Origin: an uncultured delta proteobacterium | GTDB lineage: Bacteria > Desulfobacterota > Binatia > Bin18 | Assembly: GCA_963733195.1 (NCBI GenBank) | Contig: CAVTCR010000006.1 | Span: 39,947-103,946, forward strand | DNA length: 64,000 bases | Reading direction: 5' to 3' | Part shown: positions 21,782-64,000 of the stretch, in pieces | How positions within the stretch are numbered: the stretch's first letter is position 1 | Layout of the letters: each line of letters starts with the position of its first letter | Notes under the pieces: generated by a model | What the model saw: only the letters and a program-made list of their open reading frames with translations | Told to the model about the DNA's origin: nothing | Database searches by the model: none | Made by a program: the position numbers and the translations under genes

Positions 21782-22735
21782 CTATCCTTGGGGGAAGTTG
21801 CTCTGAATCACCTCTACTGGTGCTCCACCTGGAACAGATCGAAGTCTTCCCGCTCCGCGCCGTAAAAGTAATTGGAGTCCAGAAATCCGTGCCCGCAGCT
21901 GAGCAATCTCGACGTCTTTTTCTCGCACATCCATATGTGTCCTTACATCTGGAGGCGGCATTTGAATTAAAGGTGAGACTAAGGGGGCTTCGTGCGTGCC
22001 CAGCGAGGTAAGCTGAGTTCGTAAGCGCTCAATTTCTGTTTCTGCCTCATGAATATCAGATTGATAGCGAGCGCACGAGTGTCGCAAGTTCCGGTTGCTC
22101 TCGGTGAGGTGATTCTGCTGTATTTCGAACGTTGCCAAGCGATCCTGAAGTTGTTGAATCTCGGTCTCTCTGGTGCGAAGCGTAAATTCTAAGCGAGAGC
22201 GTTGCATTTGGTGATTCGCTTCTTGCTCACGCATCTTTACACTTTGCATTTCTTGGTCCTTGAGGCGCTGAGAGAGTTGCATGTGTGTTTGAGCTTTGTC
22301 TGCGAGGTTTCGACGGAGAGCTTGGAGTTCATCCTCCAACCGGCGCGCGAGGTGCCGCTCTTTTGACAACTCCGAATTGCTCTGTGCCAAGGCTTCTTGT
22401 GCATCTCTGAGCTGTTTTTCTATAGGTGTTGACTCGGAAACCTTTGTCTCAAGCTCACTCTGAGTGGTAGCCAAAACAGACTCCACCTTCTTCAGCGTGT
22501 CGTTGGCGGCCGTCAACTGATCTTGAAATTCACGAATCTGCCCTGCATTCTTTCGTGCCGCATGTTGGGCGGCCTCAAGTTCTTGCTTTTGTCGTTGGAG
22601 CCGTTCCTCCCACGACCTGCGGTCTTGCTCCAAAGCAAGGTTAGCGCGGAGTTGCTTAGCCAGCCATCCCACCAAGATACCAAGGACGAACGTGCCACAG
22701 AGGTACGGTATGATTTGTATAATCAATGGTGACAT
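21782..22735 (-). CDS. Membrane-anchored coiled-coil protein
   Basis: N-terminal TM and C-terminal EKD.EIAQLRARISGLQLLL similar to the 19485-20894 product. Confidence 0.75.
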   Translation of the reverse strand: MSPLIIQIIPYLCGTFVLGILVGWLAKQLRANLALEQDRRSWEERLQRQKQELEAAQHAARKNAGQIREFQDQLTAANDTLKKVESVLATTQSELETKVSESTPIEKQLRDAQEALAQSNSELSKERHLARRLEDELQALRRNLADKAQTHMQLSQRLKDQEMQSVKMREQEANHQMQRSRLEFTLRTRETEIQQLQDRLATFEIQQNHLTESNRNLRHSCARYQSDIHEAETEIERLRTQLTSLGTHEAPLVSPLIQMPPPDVRTHMDVREKDVEIAQLRARISGLQLLLRRGAGRLRSVPGGAPVEVIQSNFPQG

Positions 22736-55367: not shown

Positions 55368-56474
55368 TTAAGCGGCTTTAGTGCTCTGGGGACGATCGAG
55401 TGCTCGTAATTTTGGCATGACTTGGGTGGCGAACAATTCCTCCGAGCGCAAAACCTGCTGCTGAGCGAGATCACCAAAATTCATCCAACACAAGAAGTGA
55501 CCAGCACCGGTTTCTTCGATTTGCTCCGTGAGTTGTTGAGTGACTGTCTTAGGGCTGCCTGCGATGAGAATGCCATTGTTGAGAATGTCTTCATACGTCA
55601 TCGAGGCACCCACGAAGGGGCGGAAGAATTCCTTATAGTAGGCGTAGTCATCAGGCAGAGCATCCAGATCTTTGGGGACTGCGTGAGGGATGAACAAACG
55701 GAACAGATGATTCAGCGGTCCTTCGGCGAGCTTGCGTGCTTCTTCGTCGGTTTCGGCGACGAAAACGTTGCGCATCTGCACGATGTGTTGCGGGCCGACC
55801 TTGTGCCCTGCTTCAGCAGCGGTCTTGCGATAGAGGTCGAATCGCTGCTTACTAATCTTGGGCGGCAAAAATGCACTTGACATGGGATAGCCATTGCGAG
55901 CGGCCCACACGATGGTGTCCGGGCTCAGCGCAGTGACCCAGATCGGCGGATAGGGCTTTTGCAGTGGGCGCGGCCAGATGGTCGCGCGGCCAACCTTGCG
56001 AAACTTGCCATCGAATTCAAATTCCGGCTGCTGCCAAGCCTTGAGGATGAGATCTAAACCCTCTTCAAAACGTGGTCGCGCTTCTGGGTAGGGCATGCGA
56101 TGGCGGAGGAATTCTTGTTCATCGACGCCGCGACCAATACCAAACTCTAAGCGACCGTGTGTGAGTAGGTCGAGCATCGCACCTTCTTCAGCAAGTCGTA
56201 GTGGGTCATGAAATGGCAGCACGTTAATCATGACACCAATGCGAAGGCGGGAGGTGTGTTGCGAAAGGGCAGCAACCAGAAGATTCGGAGACGGCGTGAT
56301 CGAATAGGCCGTGAAATGGTGCTCGCCGAAAAAGACTGAGTCAAACCCAAGCTGCTCGGCACGAATATATTCTTGCATGCGCGAGTCATAGACTTCTGCG
56401 GCTCGCTGTGGGTCAAAATCCGTGGGGTTCGTTCCTCCTGGCCAGTGCATAATGTCAAAGAGTGAGAACTTCAT
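55368..56474 (-). CDS. LLM-class flavin-dependent oxidoreductase
   Basis: GEHHF, PLRLAEE.AMLD.L..GRLEFGIGRG, PRPLQKP.PPIW. Confidence 0.92.
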   Translation of the reverse strand: MKFSLFDIMHWPGGTNPTDFDPQRAAEVYDSRMQEYIRAEQLGFDSVFFGEHHFTAYSITPSPNLLVAALSQHTSRLRIGVMINVLPFHDPLRLAEEGAMLDLLTHGRLEFGIGRGVDEQEFLRHRMPYPEARPRFEEGLDLILKAWQQPEFEFDGKFRKVGRATIWPRPLQKPYPPIWVTALSPDTIVWAARNGYPMSSAFLPPKISKQRFDLYRKTAAEAGHKVGPQHIVQMRNVFVAETDEEARKLAEGPLNHLFRLFIPHAVPKDLDALPDDYAYYKEFFRPFVGASMTYEDILNNGILIAGSPKTVTQQLTEQIEETGAGHFLCWMNFGDLAQQQVLRSEELFATQVMPKLRALDRPQSTKAA

Positions 56475-56550
56475 GCTGCCTCCTGCAAAACGATAGAATT
56501 CAGCCTTCTATAAACTGTTTGCGCAGGTCAACAAAGAGGGGTCCGCGAGA

Positions 56551-56904
56551 CTAGAACCCGCTTTCCCAGATCCGACTGAGATCAAGAACAAACCCTGGCA
56601 GTTCTGGTTCCGCTGAGACCGAGGTGGGATTATCCAGACAAACAACCGTAACCTCTGGGCGGTACACATAGACGCGACGCTCAAGCAGGTCGAGTAACAG
56701 ACCGAGCCGAGCCCCATTGTCAATATACTCCTGCATTTTCTGCTGAACCGCCTTGAGACTATCAGAAGGAGAACGCAGTTCGATGACAAAGTCGGGGCAG
56801 AGCGGAAGGAACTTCTTTTTCTGAGCCGGTGTTAATGAGGCCAATCGTGATCGCTTTACCCATGCTGCGTCTGGGGAACGCATAGCCCCGTTGGGAAGGG
56901 TAAT
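56551..56904 (-). pseudogene. 5'-truncated Uma2-family endonuclease
   Basis: TLPNGAMRSPDAAWV, CPDFVIELRSPSD, KMQEYIDNG; the usual N-terminal third is missing. Confidence 0.8.
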
Positions 56905-56920
56905 TTGGTATACGCTTTCC

Positions 56921-57889
56921 CTATATTCCACCTCTTCCACAGGCTTGGGCAATACTTACGCGAACGCTCTCGTCGCAGCTCCCAATCACCCAAAAACTCA
57001 ACGCAGTGAAAGACGCTACGAGGACAAAGAGGAGCAGCCCCAGGAAAGTCAGGTGTGTGAAGGAGACGGGGTCGCCCCGCTGCAAGCGGCGGACAAGGCG
57101 GATTTGCAGGAGCGCAAGCGGGGACGTGAGGACGACAGCCAGGGCGACCTGCACGGGCAGGCCGATACACGCAGCGGCGCCGACGAGGCCGAAGGCGAGG
57201 AGGATAAGAGCATTGTGCAACCTGGCTCCGGTGCGGCGGCCCACGCGTACCAGCAACGTCCGCTTCCCGGCGGCTTCGTCACTCAGAAAATCGGGGAACT
57301 CAAAGGCCAGCAACATCGCCAGGTGCAACACTATGAGCGGTGCCGTCGCCAATAGCACTAAGAAGCTGGGCTGGCGGGCCTGCAGCACATGGCCCAGAGC
57401 CGGGACGAGGCCTGCGACGACAATCGAAGTCGTCAGCTCACCATAACCGGTGCTGGATAACGTAAGGGGCGGGCTGGAATAAAAGTAGGCACCTGTGAAG
57501 CCGAGCAAGAGGATGACCCACGCGCTCGACGGCACAGCGTAGGTAAAAATCAGCCGGCTCGCCATGGCCGCAGCTACCGCTAGGCACACCATCGCCGCGG
57601 TGAATGCCGTCTTGCGAGGTAGTTCACCGTGCACCAACACCCCACTGCCGCCCGAAAACGGGGTGCGGTTGTGGTTGAGGCGATCCGCTTCCACATCCCA
57701 ATATTCATTGAGATAGTGCGTCATCAACTGCAACGCGGTGATGGAGAGCTGGCCGCTCCAATACACGCCCAAGTCCATAGCAGAGCCTTGATACCGCGCG
57801 ATCAGTGCGCCGAGGGCATACAGCAAGACTCCACCTAAAAGAAACAACGGACGAGAGAGGCGGAGGAAGGCGATGAGTTTGCGTGCCAT
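56921..57889 (-). CDS. UbiA/MenA-like prenyltransferase
   Basis: HYLNEYWD..AD, FSGGSGVL, EFPD..SD..AGKRTL.VR.G; 3' end uncertain. Confidence 0.85.
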   Translation of the reverse strand: MARKLIAFLRLSRPLFLLGGVLLYALGALIARYQGSAMDLGVYWSGQLSITALQLMTHYLNEYWDVEADRLNHNRTPFSGGSGVLVHGELPRKTAFTAAMVCLAVAAAMASRLIFTYAVPSSAWVILLLGFTGAYFYSSPPLTLSSTGYGELTTSIVVAGLVPALGHVLQARQPSFLVLLATAPLIVLHLAMLLAFEFPDFLSDEAAGKRTLLVRVGRRTGARLHNALILLAFGLVGAAACIGLPVQVALAVVLTSPLALLQIRLVRRLQRGDPVSFTHLTFLGLLLFVLVASFTALSFWVIGSCDESVRVSIAQACGRGGI

Positions 57890-58025
57890 CAGTTCACTAG
57901 CCTTAAAAGAAGTAATATCGTTAGCTCGTAAGCAAAACAGTCTCCCAGGAAGCTGCGGAGCTGTTTGCTTTCTGGCATTCTTTTCTGTGGGCAACGATAC
58001 TACCGCGAGATTTACCAAAATTGTT

Positions 58026-58086
58026 GTCTATAGACATGAGCGGCAGCCCACGGCTTGCCGGGGCATGTCCGTTCGGGGGTAGGTGC
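58026..58086 (-). other. Degenerate attC site (attC-1)
   Basis: Minus strand: CACCTACC..CGAACGGACATGCCCCGGCAAGCCG..TGCCGCTCATGTC..TATAGAC; central palindrome intact, R boxes eroded; lies just after a cassette stop codon. Confidence 0.6.
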
Positions 58087-58108
58087 GTAATGAGCAAATA
58101 TACGGAGC

Positions 58109-58453
58109 CTACTGGTCTTGCTCCCAGTGGAACTTGTGCATAACACGGTGCACTACCGGGGCGAAGACGAGGCCCGCCGCGACAAGGAATACCAAGCCTG
58201 CGTAGAGCGCATACAGGCCAGCAAACAACTTACCTCCATCCGTTCGTGGCGCGTCTACAGGCCCCATTCCGCCCAAGAGCATTGCCGCATTCAAGAATGC
58301 ATCGCGCCATGGGAGTTGCTCGAAGTACTCGTAGCCCGCCATACCAAGCATGAGTGAGAGCAGCCGAGGGCGAACGCAGCCGCGACGTGGACGCAGCACT
58401 CGCCTGACGAACTGTTTGCGAGGGATCAGTGGATGTGCTTTGGGCTCGTACAC
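58109..58453 (-). CDS. Cassette-encoded small membrane protein (two TM plus pore-loop-like segment)
   Basis: GMAGY..FE.L.W.DAFLNAAMLLGGMGP...GK.FAG.YALY.G; flanked by attC sites; probable indels near the 5' end. Confidence 0.75.
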   Translation of the reverse strand: MYEPKAHPLIPRKQFVRRVLRPRRGCVRPRLLSLMLGMAGYEYFEQLPWRDAFLNAAMLLGGMGPVDAPRTDGGKLFAGLYALYAGLVFLVAAGLVFAPVVHRVMHKFHWEQDQ

Positions 58454-58481
58454 GAGAGTTCGAGCGATTAGAGTGCGAAGC

Positions 58482-58547
58482 GTCTAACGTTCGCGTTGAG
58501 CGGCACGCCGTTCTTCAGCGCGTCCACTCTCGAACGCGCTGTTAGAC
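58482..58547 (-). other. Intact attC site (attC-2, 66 bp)
   Basis: Minus strand GTCTAAC (R'') ... GTTAGAC (R'), imperfect palindrome; upstream gene stop TAA lies inside R''. Confidence 0.9.
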
Positions 58548-59010
58548 CGCTGATGGCTCGCGGCCAAAGTAATACTGCCGCCACTGAGCCACCACCTCCT
58601 GTCCATTGCTCCTTCATCATAAGCCGGCGAGATGAGCGGCTGCGCGGCTACCACCTCGATGACGACGATAGCCTTGATGCGACGTGGCGCATCAGCAAGC
58701 TTGCGCTGGGTGAAGAACGCCACCAATTCCTCGAAGATAGCTCCCTGCTCATGGACGACCGCACGGCCTTTGAAGCGGTACCCCTTGCGCCTGAAAGGAT
58801 CCACGACGTTGACTTCAATATTTTGATTCGCTCGGAGATTGGCTACGGTGCCGGGCGAGCGAAGGTCGGCAAAGATCAGATGCGCATCATCCAAAACGCA
58901 GAGGGTGCCCTTGGGCGAGACGTTGGGGTCCCGTCCGGGCACACCGTGGCCACGAACCCTAAGCGCACCTGCTCGATGACCTGCTTCATGTGCTGATTTA
59001 ACACTCGCAT
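58542..59010 (-). CDS. Cassette-encoded pyridoxamine 5'-phosphate oxidase-like FMN-binding protein (frameshifted)
   Basis: GFVATVCPDGTPNVSPKGT, FADLRSPGTVANL..N..IEVNVVDPF.RKGYRFKG. Confidence 0.85.
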
Positions 59011-59035
59011 TCTTACGTCTCCGTTATTCACCGCG

Positions 59036-59128
59036 GGCTAACGCTTAGCAGCCGCCGCCGCAGCCTAAACGTGCCTTTTCAGGTTCAGCAGGAACCGCTC
59101 GCGGGCTGCGGTCGGCCTGCCTGCTGTT
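59036..59128 (-). other. attC-3, main part (remainder at 60764-60771), split by IS110
   Basis: Plus strand GGCTAAC...CCGCAGCC/GGCTGCGG...TGTT; joining to AGCC at 60768 rebuilds a 97-bp GGCTAAC...GTTAGCC palindrome. Confidence 0.85.
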
Positions 59129-59210
59129 GATACTCATCCAGGCCTCCTTTGCTGCAAGTGGCAGCGGAAGAATGGCTGTCTCCCAACAATCCATTCTACA
59201 AGGAGGATCC

Positions 59211-60261
59211 CTGGAGGAATTTCTACACACGACACCATAGACATTATTGCGGCATCGATCTACCTGCGACGGCGATGTCCGTTTGCATCCTCGATCAAGC
59301 CGGGACGATCCTCGTTCATAAGAATCTGCCGACAACCCCCAAAGCGTTTTTGCGCGTCATTGCTTCCTATCGGGAGGATGTGGTCGTCGGCGTCGCGTGT
59401 ATCTTCACGTGGTAGTGGCTGGCGGACTTGTGTGCGAAGGAAGGGATTGCCGTTGTCCTGGGACACGCACTCTATATGCAGGCGAGTCATGGCGGCAAAG
59501 CCAAGAACGATAAGATTGATGCGCACAAGAGCGCGCTGTGGTTACGCGGCGGGATGATGCCCCACGCCTATGTCTATCCGGCCGAGCTGCGCGCCACCCG
59601 AGAGTTACTCTATCGTCGGTGTCATCTGGTGCAGAAACGGGGCGAACTCTTCGCCCACATCCAGAATACGAATAGTCAGGAGAACTTGACGGCAATTGGG
59701 AAAAAGTTGACGTACAAAGCCACTCGAGCGGGAGTCGCCGAGCATGTTCCCGCTCCGAGCATACGCAAAACCATTGAGATGGATGTGTCCCTCATGGATC
59801 ACTACGATCAATTGCTCGGTGAAGTGGACCTATTATATATTCCGCGCACCGCCAAACTGCACGAGGTGCAGACCTTCACGCCGTTACAATCCGTACCCGG
59901 GATTGGGCAGATGCTGGCTCGGGTTCTGCGCTATGAGAGTCAGGACAGCGCGCGCTTTCCGCGCATGCAAGACTTCGTTTCCTCTTGCCGCCTAGTGCAG
60001 TACGCCAAGGAGTCGAATGGCAAACGGCTGGGCACCTCGGGCAAAAAGACTGGCAACAGCCATCTCCGCTGGGCGTTTGCGGAAGCCGCCATACTCTTTA
60101 TTCGGCAGAGCCAACCCGGAAAAGCGTATTTTGCCACCCTCGAACACCAACATGGCAAAGCCAAAGCGCTCACGGTACTCGCCCACAAGTTGGGCCGGGC
60201 CGTGTATTACCTGCGCACGTGCGAACACGCGTTTGATCCCCAACGCTTTGTGACCGCGTAA
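59211..60261 (+). pseudogene. IS110 DEDD transposase/recombinase, degenerate
   Basis: YCGIDL, KNDKIDA, LQSVPGIG, ESNGK, GNSHLRWAFAEAA; in-frame TAG at 59413, no ATG, expected catalytic Glu reads Ala. Confidence 0.85.
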
Positions 60262-60763
60262 CCCCTGAGGGAAGAGCCCAAGCCCGCCGTCTAACCGGCC
60301 ACCAGCGAGCCGAACCTGTCTGAGGCGTCTTCCTGATCTACAGCCCTGACGTGCCGGACCCTCTGGACGACAGGCTCCGAGCCGCACGCCGTGATTGGAC
60401 GGTCTCTCTCGCTCATCTTCTTGGTAAGGCGTCACCAAGTGCCCCGTGGCTACCCCTCCACCGAGTCTGGACCTAACTAGGAGTGTCTCACGACACAATC
60501 CGCTATTTTGAGAAGACCGGCATGAGGGTACAGAAGAGTTTCTAGGGCGTGGCGTTTGCGAATGCCACTGTTTCCCGTGGACCATGGTCCACCGAAACAT
60601 GGACCCTCGATAGGTGTTTGGTGCAGCTACAGGCTGTGACCAGCAACCGAAATTAAGTCAGCCGCAAACACTTGGCAATGATGATTCACCAAATGTTATT
60701 CGGACGGCCACTCCGCCCCCGTAGGGCATCCGTCTGCCCTCTTGACATCGGCGGCCTCATAGG
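60262..60763 (+). ncRNA. Candidate bridge/seekRNA region of the IS110 element
   Basis: Structured non-coding 3' end; ATAGGTGTT (60610-60618) is identical to the element right end; two CTAAC-containing modules. Confidence 0.55.
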
Positions 60764-60784
60764 TGTTAGCCGAAGCAGCACTGC

Positions 60785-61138
60785 TCACTCCCCGAACGGT
60801 AAGAAGATGACCTGATTCATTAGATCTGCAGGTTCTCCAGCCTTCGCGATCAGTTCTAGATCTCCTACACATCTCCCGATCGACACGCGGAGTTGATGAG
60901 CATACACTATACCGTGGAATAGGAGGCCTGCACTTTGTCGTTTCGTCGCCTCGACTAAGAGATCGTCATCGCGTGTGAACAACACCCGCTCCAATTCACC
61001 AGCCCGATCCAGGAGCCTCACATCCTCAAGTTCACTGGTGCCATCTTCATAGGCAGTGAGCACCTCTACGCCACGGAGCCGAAGGCCGAGGGTGATTGTT
61101 CGGGGCACGTGTTGATCCATGTAGAAGGCAATGGGCAT
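60785..61138 (-). CDS. DUF5615 PIN-like toxin (cassette TA module)
   Basis: FYMDQHV, D..LL..A....RVLFTRDDD. Confidence 0.85.
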   Translation of the reverse strand: MPIAFYMDQHVPRTITLGLRLRGVEVLTAYEDGTSELEDVRLLDRAGELERVLFTRDDDLLVEATKRQSAGLLFHGIVYAHQLRVSIGRCVGDLELIAKAGEPADLMNQVIFLPFGE

Positions 61139-61449
61139 TAACTCAGCCTTCGAGCCTTCAGTTGCTCTACCAGTGAAGAGGAAGGCAACGTTTGCTGTAA
61201 CTGGTCAACGAGCTGTAGCCGTCGTTCCATGTCTCGATCAAGCTCGGCTTTATGATCCCAATAGTATGCCAGCGCCGAGTGGATCTGTCCCATCGTCAGA
61301 TGAGGATGTTGAAAATGTAACTCTTCTGGGCTCCAGCCATAGGCGAGTTGATCCAAAACAAGTTCAATGACTTTCACTCGCGTGCCCGCAATCAACGGTA
61401 CGTGTGCCTCATCTAGGATAATATGTTCGTAACGCGTTTCGCTCAGCAC
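61138..61449 (-). CDS. DUF433 antitoxin (cassette TA module)
   Basis: PLIAGTRVKV, GWSPEEL..QHPHLT..QI.SALAYY.DH; AAGGAGG RBS, GTG start, 1-bp overlap with the toxin. Confidence 0.88.
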   Translation of the reverse strand: MLSETRYEHIILDEAHVPLIAGTRVKVIELVLDQLAYGWSPEELHFQHPHLTMGQIHSALAYYWDHKAELDRDMERRLQLVDQLQQTLPSSSLVEQLKARRLS

Positions 61450-61475
61450 TGAAGGAACCTCCTTTCTCCTCAATG

Positions 61476-61505
61476 AGTGTACGTCTGGGATTGTCTCCAT
61501 GTAAA
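61476..61505 (-). promoter_or_regulatory. Sigma70-like promoter internal to the TA cassette
   Basis: Minus strand TTTACA-N18-TACACT. Confidence 0.55.
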
Positions 61506-61517
61506 GAGGATTGCGAC

Positions 61518-61609
61518 GGCTAACGCTGGCGGTCACCGCGAGCTGCCCAACCGAGAACTTTGGCTTCAGCAGAACCGCCACCGGGCAGCAATGCGGTGCA
61601 GCGCCTTGT
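61518..61609 (-). other. attC-4, interrupted at R'' by a group II intron
   Basis: Plus strand GGCTAAC..CACCGC..GCTGCCC/GGGCAGC..GCGGTG..TTGT then the intron start. Confidence 0.85.
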
Positions 61610-61990
61610 GTACGCCCGGCATGGGCGTGAGTGTGGGGGTGCAAGTCCCCTGTAGGAGGTTCACCTTCATGAATCGCAGGATACATGAGGATAACTACAA
61701 GTCCAAGGCAAGGGCGTCACCGCGAGGTGGGGTCTGAAGGAAGCCGGCGACCGCGTTGCGAGGCGAGGAACACGAACGGCATAGAAGGCTCACTTCCCGG
61801 GACGAGTTGGCACAACACAACGAAGTCCTGTGAATCGGGGGATCGGGTAAATGCCGCGCTTGTGCAACGACCACTCACGGTCTTATCCGGGGAGATCTGC
61901 TCCGTGTCCTGGGAAGTGGCGTGCCACGGAAATTGACTAAGCGCGGGCGAAACCGCGCTGAGCCCGGCAGAAGTCAGCCGCGGGCATAGT
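61610..61990 (+). mobile_element. Group IIC-attC-type intron, 5' part (domains I, II and start of III)
   Basis: GTACG-CCCGG start pairing with CCGGG 61887-61891, GGGTGCAAGTCCC, EBS1 loop ACAA (61812) complementary to TTGT, GGAGATCTG..CAGAAGTCAGCCG..CATAGT. Confidence 0.85.
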
Positions 61991-64000
61991 GTGTGCCTGG
62001 CAGTTTGTGTCTCAGGCGGGTTAAAGTCCCGCTCAGCCTGTGGCCACGGGCTGATATCCAAAAGTGGGAGTAACGTCTCACTGGCCAAAGAAAGGGGAAG
62101 GTATGGAGAAGTCTACCCGGGCACGAAGGCGAAAGCTGGACACAGCCAAGACGGACCTGCAGCCCCCTCTTGCAGTTCTTTGGAGGACAGGGTGTCCACC
62201 GCGAGGTGGAATCCGAAGGGTTTGCGGAGAACCACCGGGTCGTACTCGAAGGGAGCTATCCCGCCGAGGAACCGGTCGGCCCAAGCTGGGGAATGGTCGA
62301 GCCTGCACTATGGAGGCGAAGGCGTTGTGGTTCCCCCCCAGCGTACCAAGGTGTGTGCGGGCGACACGGTGGGGAAGAGAGACAAATGACCCAGGGAGAC
62401 CTGGTAGGGTCCGACGGGAAGGTAGGGTTGCGATATGTGGCACTCGCAGACGAAAGGGCGAGTAACGGAGAAGACAAAGAGCGACCTACAGCCCCCGGAG
62501 GTAAGGGGAGATATAAGCGGAAGCGAAGTTCTAACCGAGGCGCTGCCAGGAGTCGGAGCGGGGTACAGTACTCAGGAACGTCGTCAGAACAAAAGGCGGC
62601 GGAGGGTGGCCACGTGCCACTACGCTGGGTGACTCAAACGGTCAGCCAGAGGGGGAAGGCCCTGTGCTTAACTGTGTGTGAGTATATGTCGAGCGACAGC
62701 GAGTAAGTGCTGGTGTGTTGGACAGTTCCCTAGGCGAAAGACCCAACCCCAGTAATGAGGAGACTGTGGAACGACAGGACTTACCATTATCGAAGACCAG
62801 ACCAGGGAAGAGAAAGGTCCATTCCCTGATCGACAAGGTGTATAGTCGCACCAATTTGGCGTTGGCCTGGGAGAAGGTGAAGCAGAACCACGGCAGTGCC
62901 GGAGTCGACGCGGTGACCATCACGGAGTTTGAGGCAAACAAGGCGTTCTATTTGGAACGTCTGCACTGCCAGCTCCGAGATGGGACCTACCAACCACAAC
63001 CTGTGAAGCGAGTTGAGATAGACAAATCCGATGGCGGGGTCAGAAAGCTCGGCATCCCGGTGATTTTCGATCGCGCGGCCAGCAAGCCCTGGTCCAGCGG
63101 ATGGAACCGTCTTCGAGCCGCTCTTTGAGGACTGCTCCTTCGGGTATCGCAAAGGGCGCTCGCCGCACGATGCGATGCGACGTGTGTGGCAGGACTTGAA
63201 TGCAGCTATGGCTGGTGCGTCGATGCCGATCTCCGGACGTTTTTCGACACCATCCCGCAGCCTCGGTTGGTCGACATGATCGCGGAGGAGATCAGTGATG
63301 GGCGGGTCTTGCAATTGATCTGGGCGATGTTACGGGCGGGGACGATGCAGGGAACGTATTGGGAACCCACACTGACTGGTGTACCCCAAGGGGCAGTGGC
63401 CAGCCCAATGTGGTCCAATATCTTCCTGACGCCCTTTGATCGGGCGATGACCGCGGCGGGCTTTCGCCTAACGCGGTGGGCGGATGACTTTGTCGTGCGT
63501 GTAAGACGCGCGGCGAAGCCCAGCGGGCCTTGGCGTTTGCGGAACGGTTTCTCCGCGAGGAACTCGGTGTGACCCTGCATCCGCAGAAGACGCGGATCGT
63601 GCATGTGAGTCATGGCTTTGAGTTCCTCGGGTACAAGGTCAAACAGGGGAAAGGGTATCGGCTGGCGGCGTCCAAGCGGCGGAGCCGGACGAATGCTCAC
63701 AACCTGTATGCCGTACCACGCGAGAAGAGCGTGACGCGCTTCAAGGACCAAATCCGCCGGCTCACCCGGCGCAAGGCTCCGGTGAAATTGCGCGAGATGA
63801 TCCAGCAAGTGAATCCAGTGATTCGCGGCTGGGGCACGTATTACCGCAAGGCGCACGTGCGCCGCCTCTTCATCAGCTGGACGGATGGATCGAGCGCCGC
63901 CTCTACTCGTTTCTCGCCAAACGCTGGCGGAATCATATGTGGCGGCGCTATCCAACCGGGCGGTTCATTAAGGAGTTTGGCCTCGTTCGCCTCATCCATC
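61991..64000 (+). mobile_element. Second (inner) group II intron nested in domain III of the first; runs out of the window
   Basis: GTGTG-CCTGG start pairing with CCAGG 62391-62395; D2 stem CCTGGTAG/CTGCCAGG; AGTCGGAG D3; EBS1 ACTATG (62307) complementary to CATAGT (61985-61990). Confidence 0.8.
62715..64000 (+). CDS. Group II intron reverse transcriptase/maturase (frameshifted, 3' end outside window)
   Basis: KVHSLIDKVY, GSAGVD, R.LGIP...DR, SFGYR, DADLRTFFD, GVPQG..SP, RWADD, GFEFLGY, domain X NPVIRGW..YY. Confidence 0.92.

Follow-up and report, generated by a model that had tools for sequence, protein, structure and literature searches.

Insertion sequences of the IS1111 group are arranged with a long non-coding region 3′ of the transposase gene (PMC11187229; PMC11208160). 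For the attC-targeting members ISKpn4, ISPst6 and ISPa25 the published text describes seekRNAs that derive from this downstream region and in which a match to the top strand stands 5′ of a match to the bottom strand (Siddiquee et al. 2024, PMC11187229); the mechanism, including its attC-targeting members, has thus been in print since 2024 (PMC11187229). Bridge RNAs have been predicted in the right end of 93% of IS1111 elements, the donor nucleotides often lying in a multiloop (PMC11208160). Donor recognition and loop usage are much less understood for IS1111-type bridge RNAs than for that of IS621.

Here we analyze a window of 64,000 nucleotides from the genome of an uncultured delta proteobacterium (Desulfobacterota; Binatia). 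Comparison with its relatives indicates that the window holds a decayed IS1111-type element, inserted in an attC site, and that a long, structured guide RNA of the bridge RNA or seekRNA kind is probably encoded in the 3′ non-coding region of this element. The original prediction had singled out this non-coding region (60262 to ~60763) and three strings within it, all of which are found where it placed them: a 9-mer, ATAGGTGTT, at 60610–60618, which recurs at 60759–60767, and two segments containing CTAAC, AGCCCGCCGTCTAACCGG at 60281 (module 1) and AGTCTGGACCTAACTAG at 60464 (module 2).

The element, its ends and its transposase gene

The element and its principal parts are as follows.

59129 to 60764, plus strand: IS110-family, IS1111-type insertion sequence of ~1636 bp; five further full copies have the same limits
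59129 to 59147, plus strand: left end GATACTCATCC, then the subterminal inverted repeat CAGGCCTCC (59139–59147); conserved in 60+ homologs
59215 to 60261, plus strand: transposase pseudogene, with AGG in place of the ATG start of its paralogs and an in-frame TAG at 59413–59415
60742 to 60764, plus strand: right end, comprising TTGACA (60742–47), the subterminal repeat GGCGGCCTC (60750–58) and the tip ATAGGT; family consensus CtcTTGACannnGGaGGCCTtATAaGtGTT

Six full copies are present in the 6.9-Mb genome, the window copy being 78–81% identical to the five others, together with five solo fragments of the 3′ end. The fragments measure 47–159 bp and differ in their 5′ cut points (C47:62007–62165, C56:189882–190024, C5:56248–56318, C16:34144–34271 and C73:49002–49048, the last three judged by BLAST limits).

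Read through its internal stop, the transposase frame of the window copy matches Pfam families PF01548 (E 4.8e-11) and PF02371 (E 1.1e-13); it thereby has both the DEDD (RuvC-like) N-terminal domain and the C-terminal Transposase_20 domain of the IS110/IS1111 group. The internal stop arose from a TAT codon, and the frame ends in TAA at 60259–60261. Four of the other copies in the genome are frameshifted. Only one of the six (L006) has an open frame, in which the stop is replaced by TAC with a 12-codon extension; its product (L006:1587–2663) scores 204 bits against NF033542, ‘IS110 family RNA-guided transposase’ (cut-off 140). As in the IS1111 group, the long non-coding region lies downstream of the gene, with ~503 nt after the stop codon vs ~86 nt between the left end and the start of the gene at 59215, and the homologs described below share this arrangement.

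The subterminal inverted repeats are 9 bp long, within the 7–17 bp of the IS1111 group: (C/A)AGGCCTCC stands 10 nt inside the left end and GGAGGCCT(G/T) stands 6–9 nt inside the right end. The outermost pair of the repeat covaries, position +11 of the left end being complementary to position −10 of the right end in 98% of 55 loci (a mutual-information scan, dominated by self-matches and clade signal, was used for this repeat alone). The TTGACA of the right end is likely to be the −35 box of a junction promoter, a feature of IS1111 elements cited in PMC11187229. The window copy is most likely a fossil, since it has no working transposase, matches the subterminal repeat at 7/9 positions and carries mismatches at three of the ten pairs of helix P1 (see below).

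The target is an attC site and the insertion point is fixed

The element is flanked by the two parts of an interrupted attC site.

59036 to 59128, plus strand: left part, with the R″ box GGCTAAC (59036–59042), the arms and a 9-nt spacer, CCTGCTGTT, up to the insertion point
60765 to 60771, plus strand: attC R′ box GTTAGCC, intact to the right of the element

The R″ box is complementary to the R′ box at 7/7 positions. The genome contains at least 29 uninterrupted attC sites of the same two repeat subtypes, each with a GTTAG-like box at its end, and encodes an integron integrase (477 bits, cut-off 265). These perfectly complementary boxes, the family of empty sites and the integrase together identify the target as an attC site. 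Two purpose-made attC scanners performed no better on the sequence than on shuffles, and the assignment rests on the boxes, the empty sites and intI.

The distance from the conserved arm to GTT in the empty sites is 9 nt in 25/29 and 10 nt in 4/29 (hand count); between ...CTG and GTT of the empty paralogous sites it is 9 nt in 6/8 and 10 nt in 2/8. At occupied sites the number of nucleotides before the left end is 9 (the window copy, L002, L005 and L006), 8 (L004) or 10 (L003). This equality of spacing places the element directly against the 5′ side of the GTT of the R′ box. In all six copies of the genome the left end adjoins the left arm of attC and GTTAG follows the right end, so both the point and the orientation of insertion are fixed. 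The consensus after GTT in 55 right flanks is AGGC.

The only bases common to both junctions are T59128/T60764 and G59129/G60765, and it is possible that the crossover is T or TG. GTT is preceded by G in 16 of the 29 empty sites, by T in 7 and by A in 6 (hand count). Of 64 distinct occupied sites, 59 have T next to the left end, and 16 of 69 right junctions have G before GTT where the predicted RNA has U. Such a choice of bases is what a one- or two-base crossover with a tolerated mismatch would leave. A duplicated core of GTT (or TT), with the element ending at 60767, was rejected: it needs 11–12 nt before the left end, where the sites have 8–10. The earlier description of the repeated 9-mer as ‘right end plus core’ therefore stands for the right end and fails for the core, GTT at 60765–60767 being the start of the attC R′ box, as in the 29 empty sites.

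Several observations concern the surroundings of the site. The attC sites of the two subtypes are scattered over more than 15 contigs and do not form one array. The integrase gene (genome G000, C33:20009–20953) lies in an open 381-codon frame (TIGR02249), and broken integrase fragments are found on C32, C1 and C33. One cassette to the left of the element, a 66-nt attC-like palindrome of a different subtype (GTCTAAC ... GTTAGAC) occupies 58482–58547. To the right, two adjoining small ORFs of 117 and 182 codons fill the cassette (60785–61686, minus strand). In the stretch 61510–64000 a group II intron has split the next attC, whose left part runs from GGCTAAC near 61520 to the end of GGTGCAGCGCCTT at 61611; the intron starts at ~61612, matches RF02001 at 61716–61881 (E 1e-22) and contains a reverse-transcriptase-like ORF from 62715. 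The intron occupies the same spot in attC as the insertion sequence, 9 nt past the conserved arm, and its 5′ end is found again behind attC arms on contigs C55 and C56.

The non-coding region is conserved and is predicted to fold into a multi-looped RNA

A scan with the L006 protein of one genome per species gave 363 confirmed matches, of which the best 80 (60–91% identity) were taken; these 80 come from metagenome-assembled genomes labelled as many phyla. The motif CCTC-N-ATA(A/G)GTGTTTGGTGCAG, which includes the 9-mer, is present ~350 nt after the stop codon in 70/80 loci and also in 6/6 copies of our genome, and in the homologs a right end of the form TTGACA..GGAGGCCT-N-ATAnnnGTT lies 140–220 nt beyond it. 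Rows were left out of the counts where the motif was absent (10/80), the right end was absent (7/76), the left end was undetected or the contig end cut the locus; both ends of the relatives were called by consensus-based fuzzy patterns, which could miss very different ends.

Mean column identity in the non-coding region is ~89% across the six copies of the genome. Among 57 distant loci (60–70% transposase identity) conservation is concentrated in blocks at 60281–97, 60392–400, 60451–80, 60508–47, 60600–27, 60650–62 and 60738–67. A search of 56000–64000 against Rfam (15) at E ≤ 1 returned group II intron matches only, none of them on this region. At one locus (L052:2915–3200) a copy of the element has inserted into the non-coding region of a second copy. 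The sequence on its right, TCTAGGTCGTGG.., is that of the conserved GTTTCTAGG block, so that the predicted guide RNA template can itself be a target.

The predicted structural elements are listed below.

60271 to 60409, plus strand: domain A, in which helix P1 (60271–60280 with 60400–60409) closes a loop with module 1 on its 5′ side and GUGAUUGGA on its 3′ side
60427 to 60450, plus strand: 5′ arm of the long-range helix P2
60454 to 60528, plus strand: domain B, in which helices 60454–58/60524–28, 60461–63/60518–20 and 60466–68/60514–16 close a second loop
60619 to 60642, plus strand: hairpin directly 3′ of the 9-mer, from single-sequence folds
60649 to 60661, plus strand: GAAAUUAAGUCAG, a block conserved family-wide and predicted to be single-stranded, on the 3′ side of the multiloop
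60660 to 60687, plus strand: 3′ arm of P2, within which CACUUGG pairs with CCAAGUG at 60438–60444

Helix P1 is particularly well supported. All ten of its pairs have changed on both sides, 93.2% of cells are paired and 109 cells are double-changed, a result reached by 0/500 shuffles; partners slid out of register are paired in 37–47%. The G:U pairs in P1 (GU 10 and UG 13, at two pairs) fit an RNA of the plus strand. Across the family loop A takes the form AGCCngnCGtCUAACUGG on its 5′ side and UUGAUUGGA on its 3′ side.

Domain B comprises 11 predicted pairs, six with compensatory change (e.g., CG in 22 and UA in 21 sequences at one pair). Its loop has module 2 (CUAAC, 60473–60477) on the 5′ side and UUGA (60508–60511) on the 3′ side, with the consensus ..nnnCUAACUGG and uuUUGAnuaGGAC, respectively. 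Loops A and B have in common CTAACTGG (CUAACUGG as RNA) and TTGAnT(a)GGAC, and on this account look like an internal duplication. Alignment folds took 43, 46 and 47 of 60 references for the individual domains, near-duplicates being dropped by eye.

The two arms of P2 enclose domain B and the following domain C. Over 55 distinct arm pairs, the mean duplex energy is −17.0 kcal/mol for an arm with its own partner vs −11.1 kcal/mol for cross pairs, and 0/2000 permutations were as low. In domain C minimum-energy folding places a hairpin directly after the 9-mer in nearly all of 60 distinct homologs, although their stem sequences differ (mean z −2.0; z < −1.5 in 41/60); single-sequence folds were used here since the hairpins were misaligned and RNAalifold returned no pairs. 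From this hairpin a conserved GAAAyyAAGUC block leads into P2. It is possible that GAAAUUAAGUCAG in this block is antisense to the left end or left flank: its reverse complement resembles the commonest left flank, ..GACTT|G, which AAGUCAG fits as antisense. The base next to CAA varies, many relatives pair CCAAG in a small hairpin, and an antisense match of AUCAA to the left end occurs in a subset of homologs only.

Compensatory change is seen in the long-range helix P2 as well as in P1, in the helices of domain B and in the hairpin that follows the 9-mer. The region has the properties of a structured non-coding RNA, and the covarying helices of the homologs bear out the expectation that it would be long and multi-looped. 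A stem that had been proposed, GTGTTTG (60614–60620) with CAAACAC (60665–60671), does not hold: CAAACAC is kept in 1/6 copies, and the 3′ part belongs to the covarying P2.

Three loop segments track the DNA at the junctions

Segments of the predicted loops were compared with the DNA at the ends and flanks of the same locus. All of these covariation tests were made on related sequences, the permutations ignore phylogeny, and the independent lineages per guide variant are few (~5 for the 9-mer, 4–5 for module 1 and 3 for UUGAU). The candidate guides are as follows.

60600 to 60618, plus strand: donor (right-end) candidate guide, GACCCUCG followed by AUAGGUGUU (60610–60618); same-sense to the right junction
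60281 to 60298, plus strand: module 1, AGCCCGCCGTCTAACCGG; family consensus AGCCngnCGtCTAACTGG; CGUCUAAC is 60288–60295
60391 to 60396, plus strand: GUGAUU (family consensus UUGAUU); same-sense with the left junction (the final 2 nt of the left flank, then GAT)

The 9-mer occurs three times in the window, where 0.18 occurrences are expected and 0/100 shuffles reach three; the third copy, at 22422, is in unrelated sequence. In 69 loci with both sites the internal 9-mer equals that of the right junction at 9/9 positions in 47 and at 8/9 in 13. Summed identity is 587/621, against a permuted mean of 543.5 and maximum of 559 (0/10000). The variants ATAGATGTT, ATAGGCGTT, ATATGTGTT and ATAAGTGTT are each found at both places; the first three are rare and stand at both places within one locus. 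Position 4 (A/G) agrees with the junction in 65/69, and the usual mismatch is at position 6 (17/69). Because GTT belongs to the R′ box, the 9-mer reads as the right-end tip ATAGG, the crossover T and the first three bases of attC R′. Two further ideas about this segment were discarded. GGUGCAG, which follows the 9-mer, resembles positions −13 to −7 of the flank; it forms the stem of the hairpin and was treated as coincidence. The idea that the solo 3′ fragments are excision products cut at the internal 9-mer was rejected, as one alone (L007) starts there and another (L008) starts later.

In module 1, CGUCUAAC is antisense to the attC R′ sequence GTTAGRCG, as would be expected of a right-target guide. 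CTAAC by itself is five letters long and meaningless alone; its weight comes from conservation and covariation in the homologs. Compared with the GTT plus 5 nt of its own locus, module 1 (8 nt to AAC) scores 377/504, against a permuted mean of 351.8 and maximum of 370 (0/20000). Individual loci show paired changes: CUUAUAAC with GTTATAGG or GTTATAAT in L038/40, CGCACAAC with GTTGTGCA in L044, CGCCGAAC with GTTCGGCC in L073 and, as a partial match, CUCGAAAC with GTTCCGGC in L084/85. Over seven bases, UUAUAAC accompanies GTTATAG or GTTATAA, GCACAAC accompanies GTTGTGC and GCCGAAC accompanies GTTCGGC. Module 2 changes together with module 1 in L044, L045 and L013; in L038/40, L073 and L084/85 it does not. 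Of the two modules proposed as complementary to the target, then, module 1 tracks the right flank, but module 2 follows the target only in some lineages.

The GUGAUU segment on the other side of loop A appears, from its same-sense match, to read the left junction or crossover. Scored against its own left junction, UUGAU gives 282/295 (permuted mean 268.9, maximum 277; 0/20000), and GCGAU, UGGAU and AUGAU occur with left flanks ending in GC, TG and AT. Treated instead as matching the final 6 nt of the left flank, UUGAUU failed (147/354 vs a permuted mean of 151.3). The covariation tests on homologs turned up no segment that convincingly guides to the left flank, nor one that reads more than 3 nt of the left end. 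At the target, matches consist of module 1 with GTT and the flank on the right side and of 1–2 nt before the crossover on the left. As for the donor ends, the loops match the right end and, of the left end, only the GAT within UUGAU.

Two degenerate copies, L013 and L039, show linked changes: each has G as the last base of its 9-mer, and CUCAC stands in both modules of L013 and in module 1 of L039. This suggests that the 9-mer and the modules have the crossover position in common.

Together these analyses support the original prediction of a bridge RNA or seekRNA programmed for attC, since one segment covaries with the right junction, a second with the right flank and a third with the left junction. 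Had CTAAC and the 9-mer stayed fixed in homologs whose targets and ends differ, that interpretation would have suffered; instead the 9-mer changes with the right junction and module 1 with the right flank.

A proposed model for the working of the predicted guide RNA

The roles of the loops were assigned by analogy with IS621 (PMC11208160, PMC11208158) and with the seekRNAs (PMC11187229), as far as these are described there, the data themselves being covariation and not pairing. Existence of the region as RNA, its binding by the recombinase, the strand paired at each step and the role of loop B are all inferred. The guide RNA would be ~420 nt long (roughly 60266–60688), from the plus strand, and probably the tail of the transposase transcript. 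Loop A, closed by P1, would be the target loop and carry CGUCUAAC; on its other side (U/G)UGAU would read the crossover T(G) together with the start of the left end. This short same-sense piece would comprise the base or bases before the crossover, then 2–3 bases of the left end, like an extended handshake. The left flank would hardly be read, which suits attC sites, whose spacers differ.

Domain C would be the donor loop, with AUAGGUGUU beside the hairpin in the multiloop closed by P2. AUAGGU would read the bottom strand of the right-end tip and the crossover, and GUU the first R′ bases after the exchange. Domain B, in the same multiloop, would be a paralog of loop A (CUAACUGG ... UUGA).

A bolder version of this model seems to us unlikely. 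It takes the molecule to be a three-loop bridge RNA about twice the known size, with a donor multiloop and two paralogous target-type loops (A and B), both of which bear CUAACUGG on one side and UUGA(U) opposite; the guides of this RNA would match recombinant junctions and not substrates. The two loops would grip both arms of a folded or cruciform attC, or one would serve insertion and the other excision. Since CUAAC is antisense to both R′ (top strand) and R″ (bottom strand), one RNA could grip both attC arms. If this were true, target choice would rest almost wholly on the 7–8 nt R′ box, and the invasion of hundreds of attC sites would be explained.

Alternative explanations

The region might instead be a structured 3′ UTR or regulatory RNA, concerned with stability, translation control or termination of the transposase transcript, its matches to the ends and to attC being by-products of common descent in few lineages. 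This has in its favor that the structure is well supported and the function is not, that the permutation tests are blind to phylogeny, and that CUAAC in loop B can be conserved without tracking the target. It must nevertheless account for three distinct segments, all located in loops and all in the register that a junction would require, and for variants that change together with DNA 150–1500 nt away or outside the element (L038/40, L044, L073, L074 and L029/49). Moreover, where one element is found at different sites (L062–64) the RNA is kept and the flanks vary at the crossover nucleotide alone, and the family model NF033542 is itself named ‘RNA-guided transposase’. We consider a purely regulatory role very unlikely.

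Very unlikely too is that the internal 9-mer and its CCTC-rich lead-in form a second right end at the level of DNA, a pseudo-end or duplication relic usable as DNA by the recombinase and kept similar by shared protein recognition or gene conversion and not by RNA pairing: the likeness is indeed same-sense and extends weakly upstream (GAGCCTC-N-ATA.. vs GAGGCCT-T-ATA..), and one solo fragment (L007) begins at the internal motif, but other fragments begin elsewhere (L008 later), the internal copy has no subterminal repeat partner beside it, covarying helices lie on both sides of the multiloop that holds the motif, a conserved hairpin follows the motif immediately, and the flank covariation of the antisense module 1 is left unexplained.

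Comparison with described guide RNAs

As a template of a guide RNA, the region resembles those of the attC-targeting elements as described in PMC11187229 in several respects: it lies downstream of the transposase gene, the element has subterminal inverted repeats and inserts at one end of attC, the top-strand complement (CGUCUAAC) stands 5′ of the reader of the bottom strand (UUGAU), and the right end carries the −35 box of what is likely to be a junction promoter. It differs in size and layout, the published peaks being 82–96 nt with long forms of ~150 nt, whereas here we predict ~420 nt and three loops. It also has a clear donor (right-end) guide, of which the text of PMC11187229 gives no description, although the supplementary folds of that paper may show part of the layout. 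The transposase is ~24% identical to its IS110-family matches on Klebsiella and E. coli plasmids; the link to the studied attC-targeting elements is one of architecture. An element on a P. aeruginosa plasmid, 33% identical, has a ~400-nt downstream non-coding region and lies outside attC.

The predicted RNA shares with the IS621 bridge RNA, as described in PMC11208160 and PMC11208158, separate target and donor loops, with natural reprogramming seen as covariation. Common to both are a same-sense left-donor guide with the crossover, an antisense right-target guide with the crossover, and guide extensions that, like handshake guides, read a few bases of the partner DNA. Unlike that of IS621, it is located in the right end rather than the left, its target loop presents the guides in the opposite order, its donor guide lies in a multiloop, and there is a third, paralogous loop. 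Further differences from the same accounts are that the left-target guide is only 1–2 nt plus the crossover, that the extensions are 2–3 nt and match recombinant junctions, and that the crossover appears to be T(G) rather than a CT core. The location in the right end and the donor nucleotides in a multiloop agree exactly with the account of many IS1111 orthologues, whose bridge RNAs were predicted by covariance models, in Durrant et al. 2024 (PMC11208160); six IS1111 elements are shown there, and the likeness is by description, not sequence.

Judged from sequence comparison, what is unusual here is the length (~420 nt vs 82–250 nt), the duplicated loop, the explicit right-end guide, the junction-like extensions and the distant transposase clade.

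Significance

The locus appears to be a clean natural example of RNA-guided recombination aimed at attC, in a clade found in many environmental phyla and far from the elements studied at the bench. The comparative data amount to a predicted residue-level map of the RNA positions that would read the right end, the crossover and the attC R′ box. They contain several instances of natural reprogramming, and they put the crossover one base 5′ of the GTT that belongs to the integrase. Such a map could help in selecting an intact homolog, either of the L006 type or from among its relatives, for biochemistry on an IS1111-type bridge RNA. In the genome itself, the attC cassette sites have been invaded at the same point by an IS family and by a group II intron.
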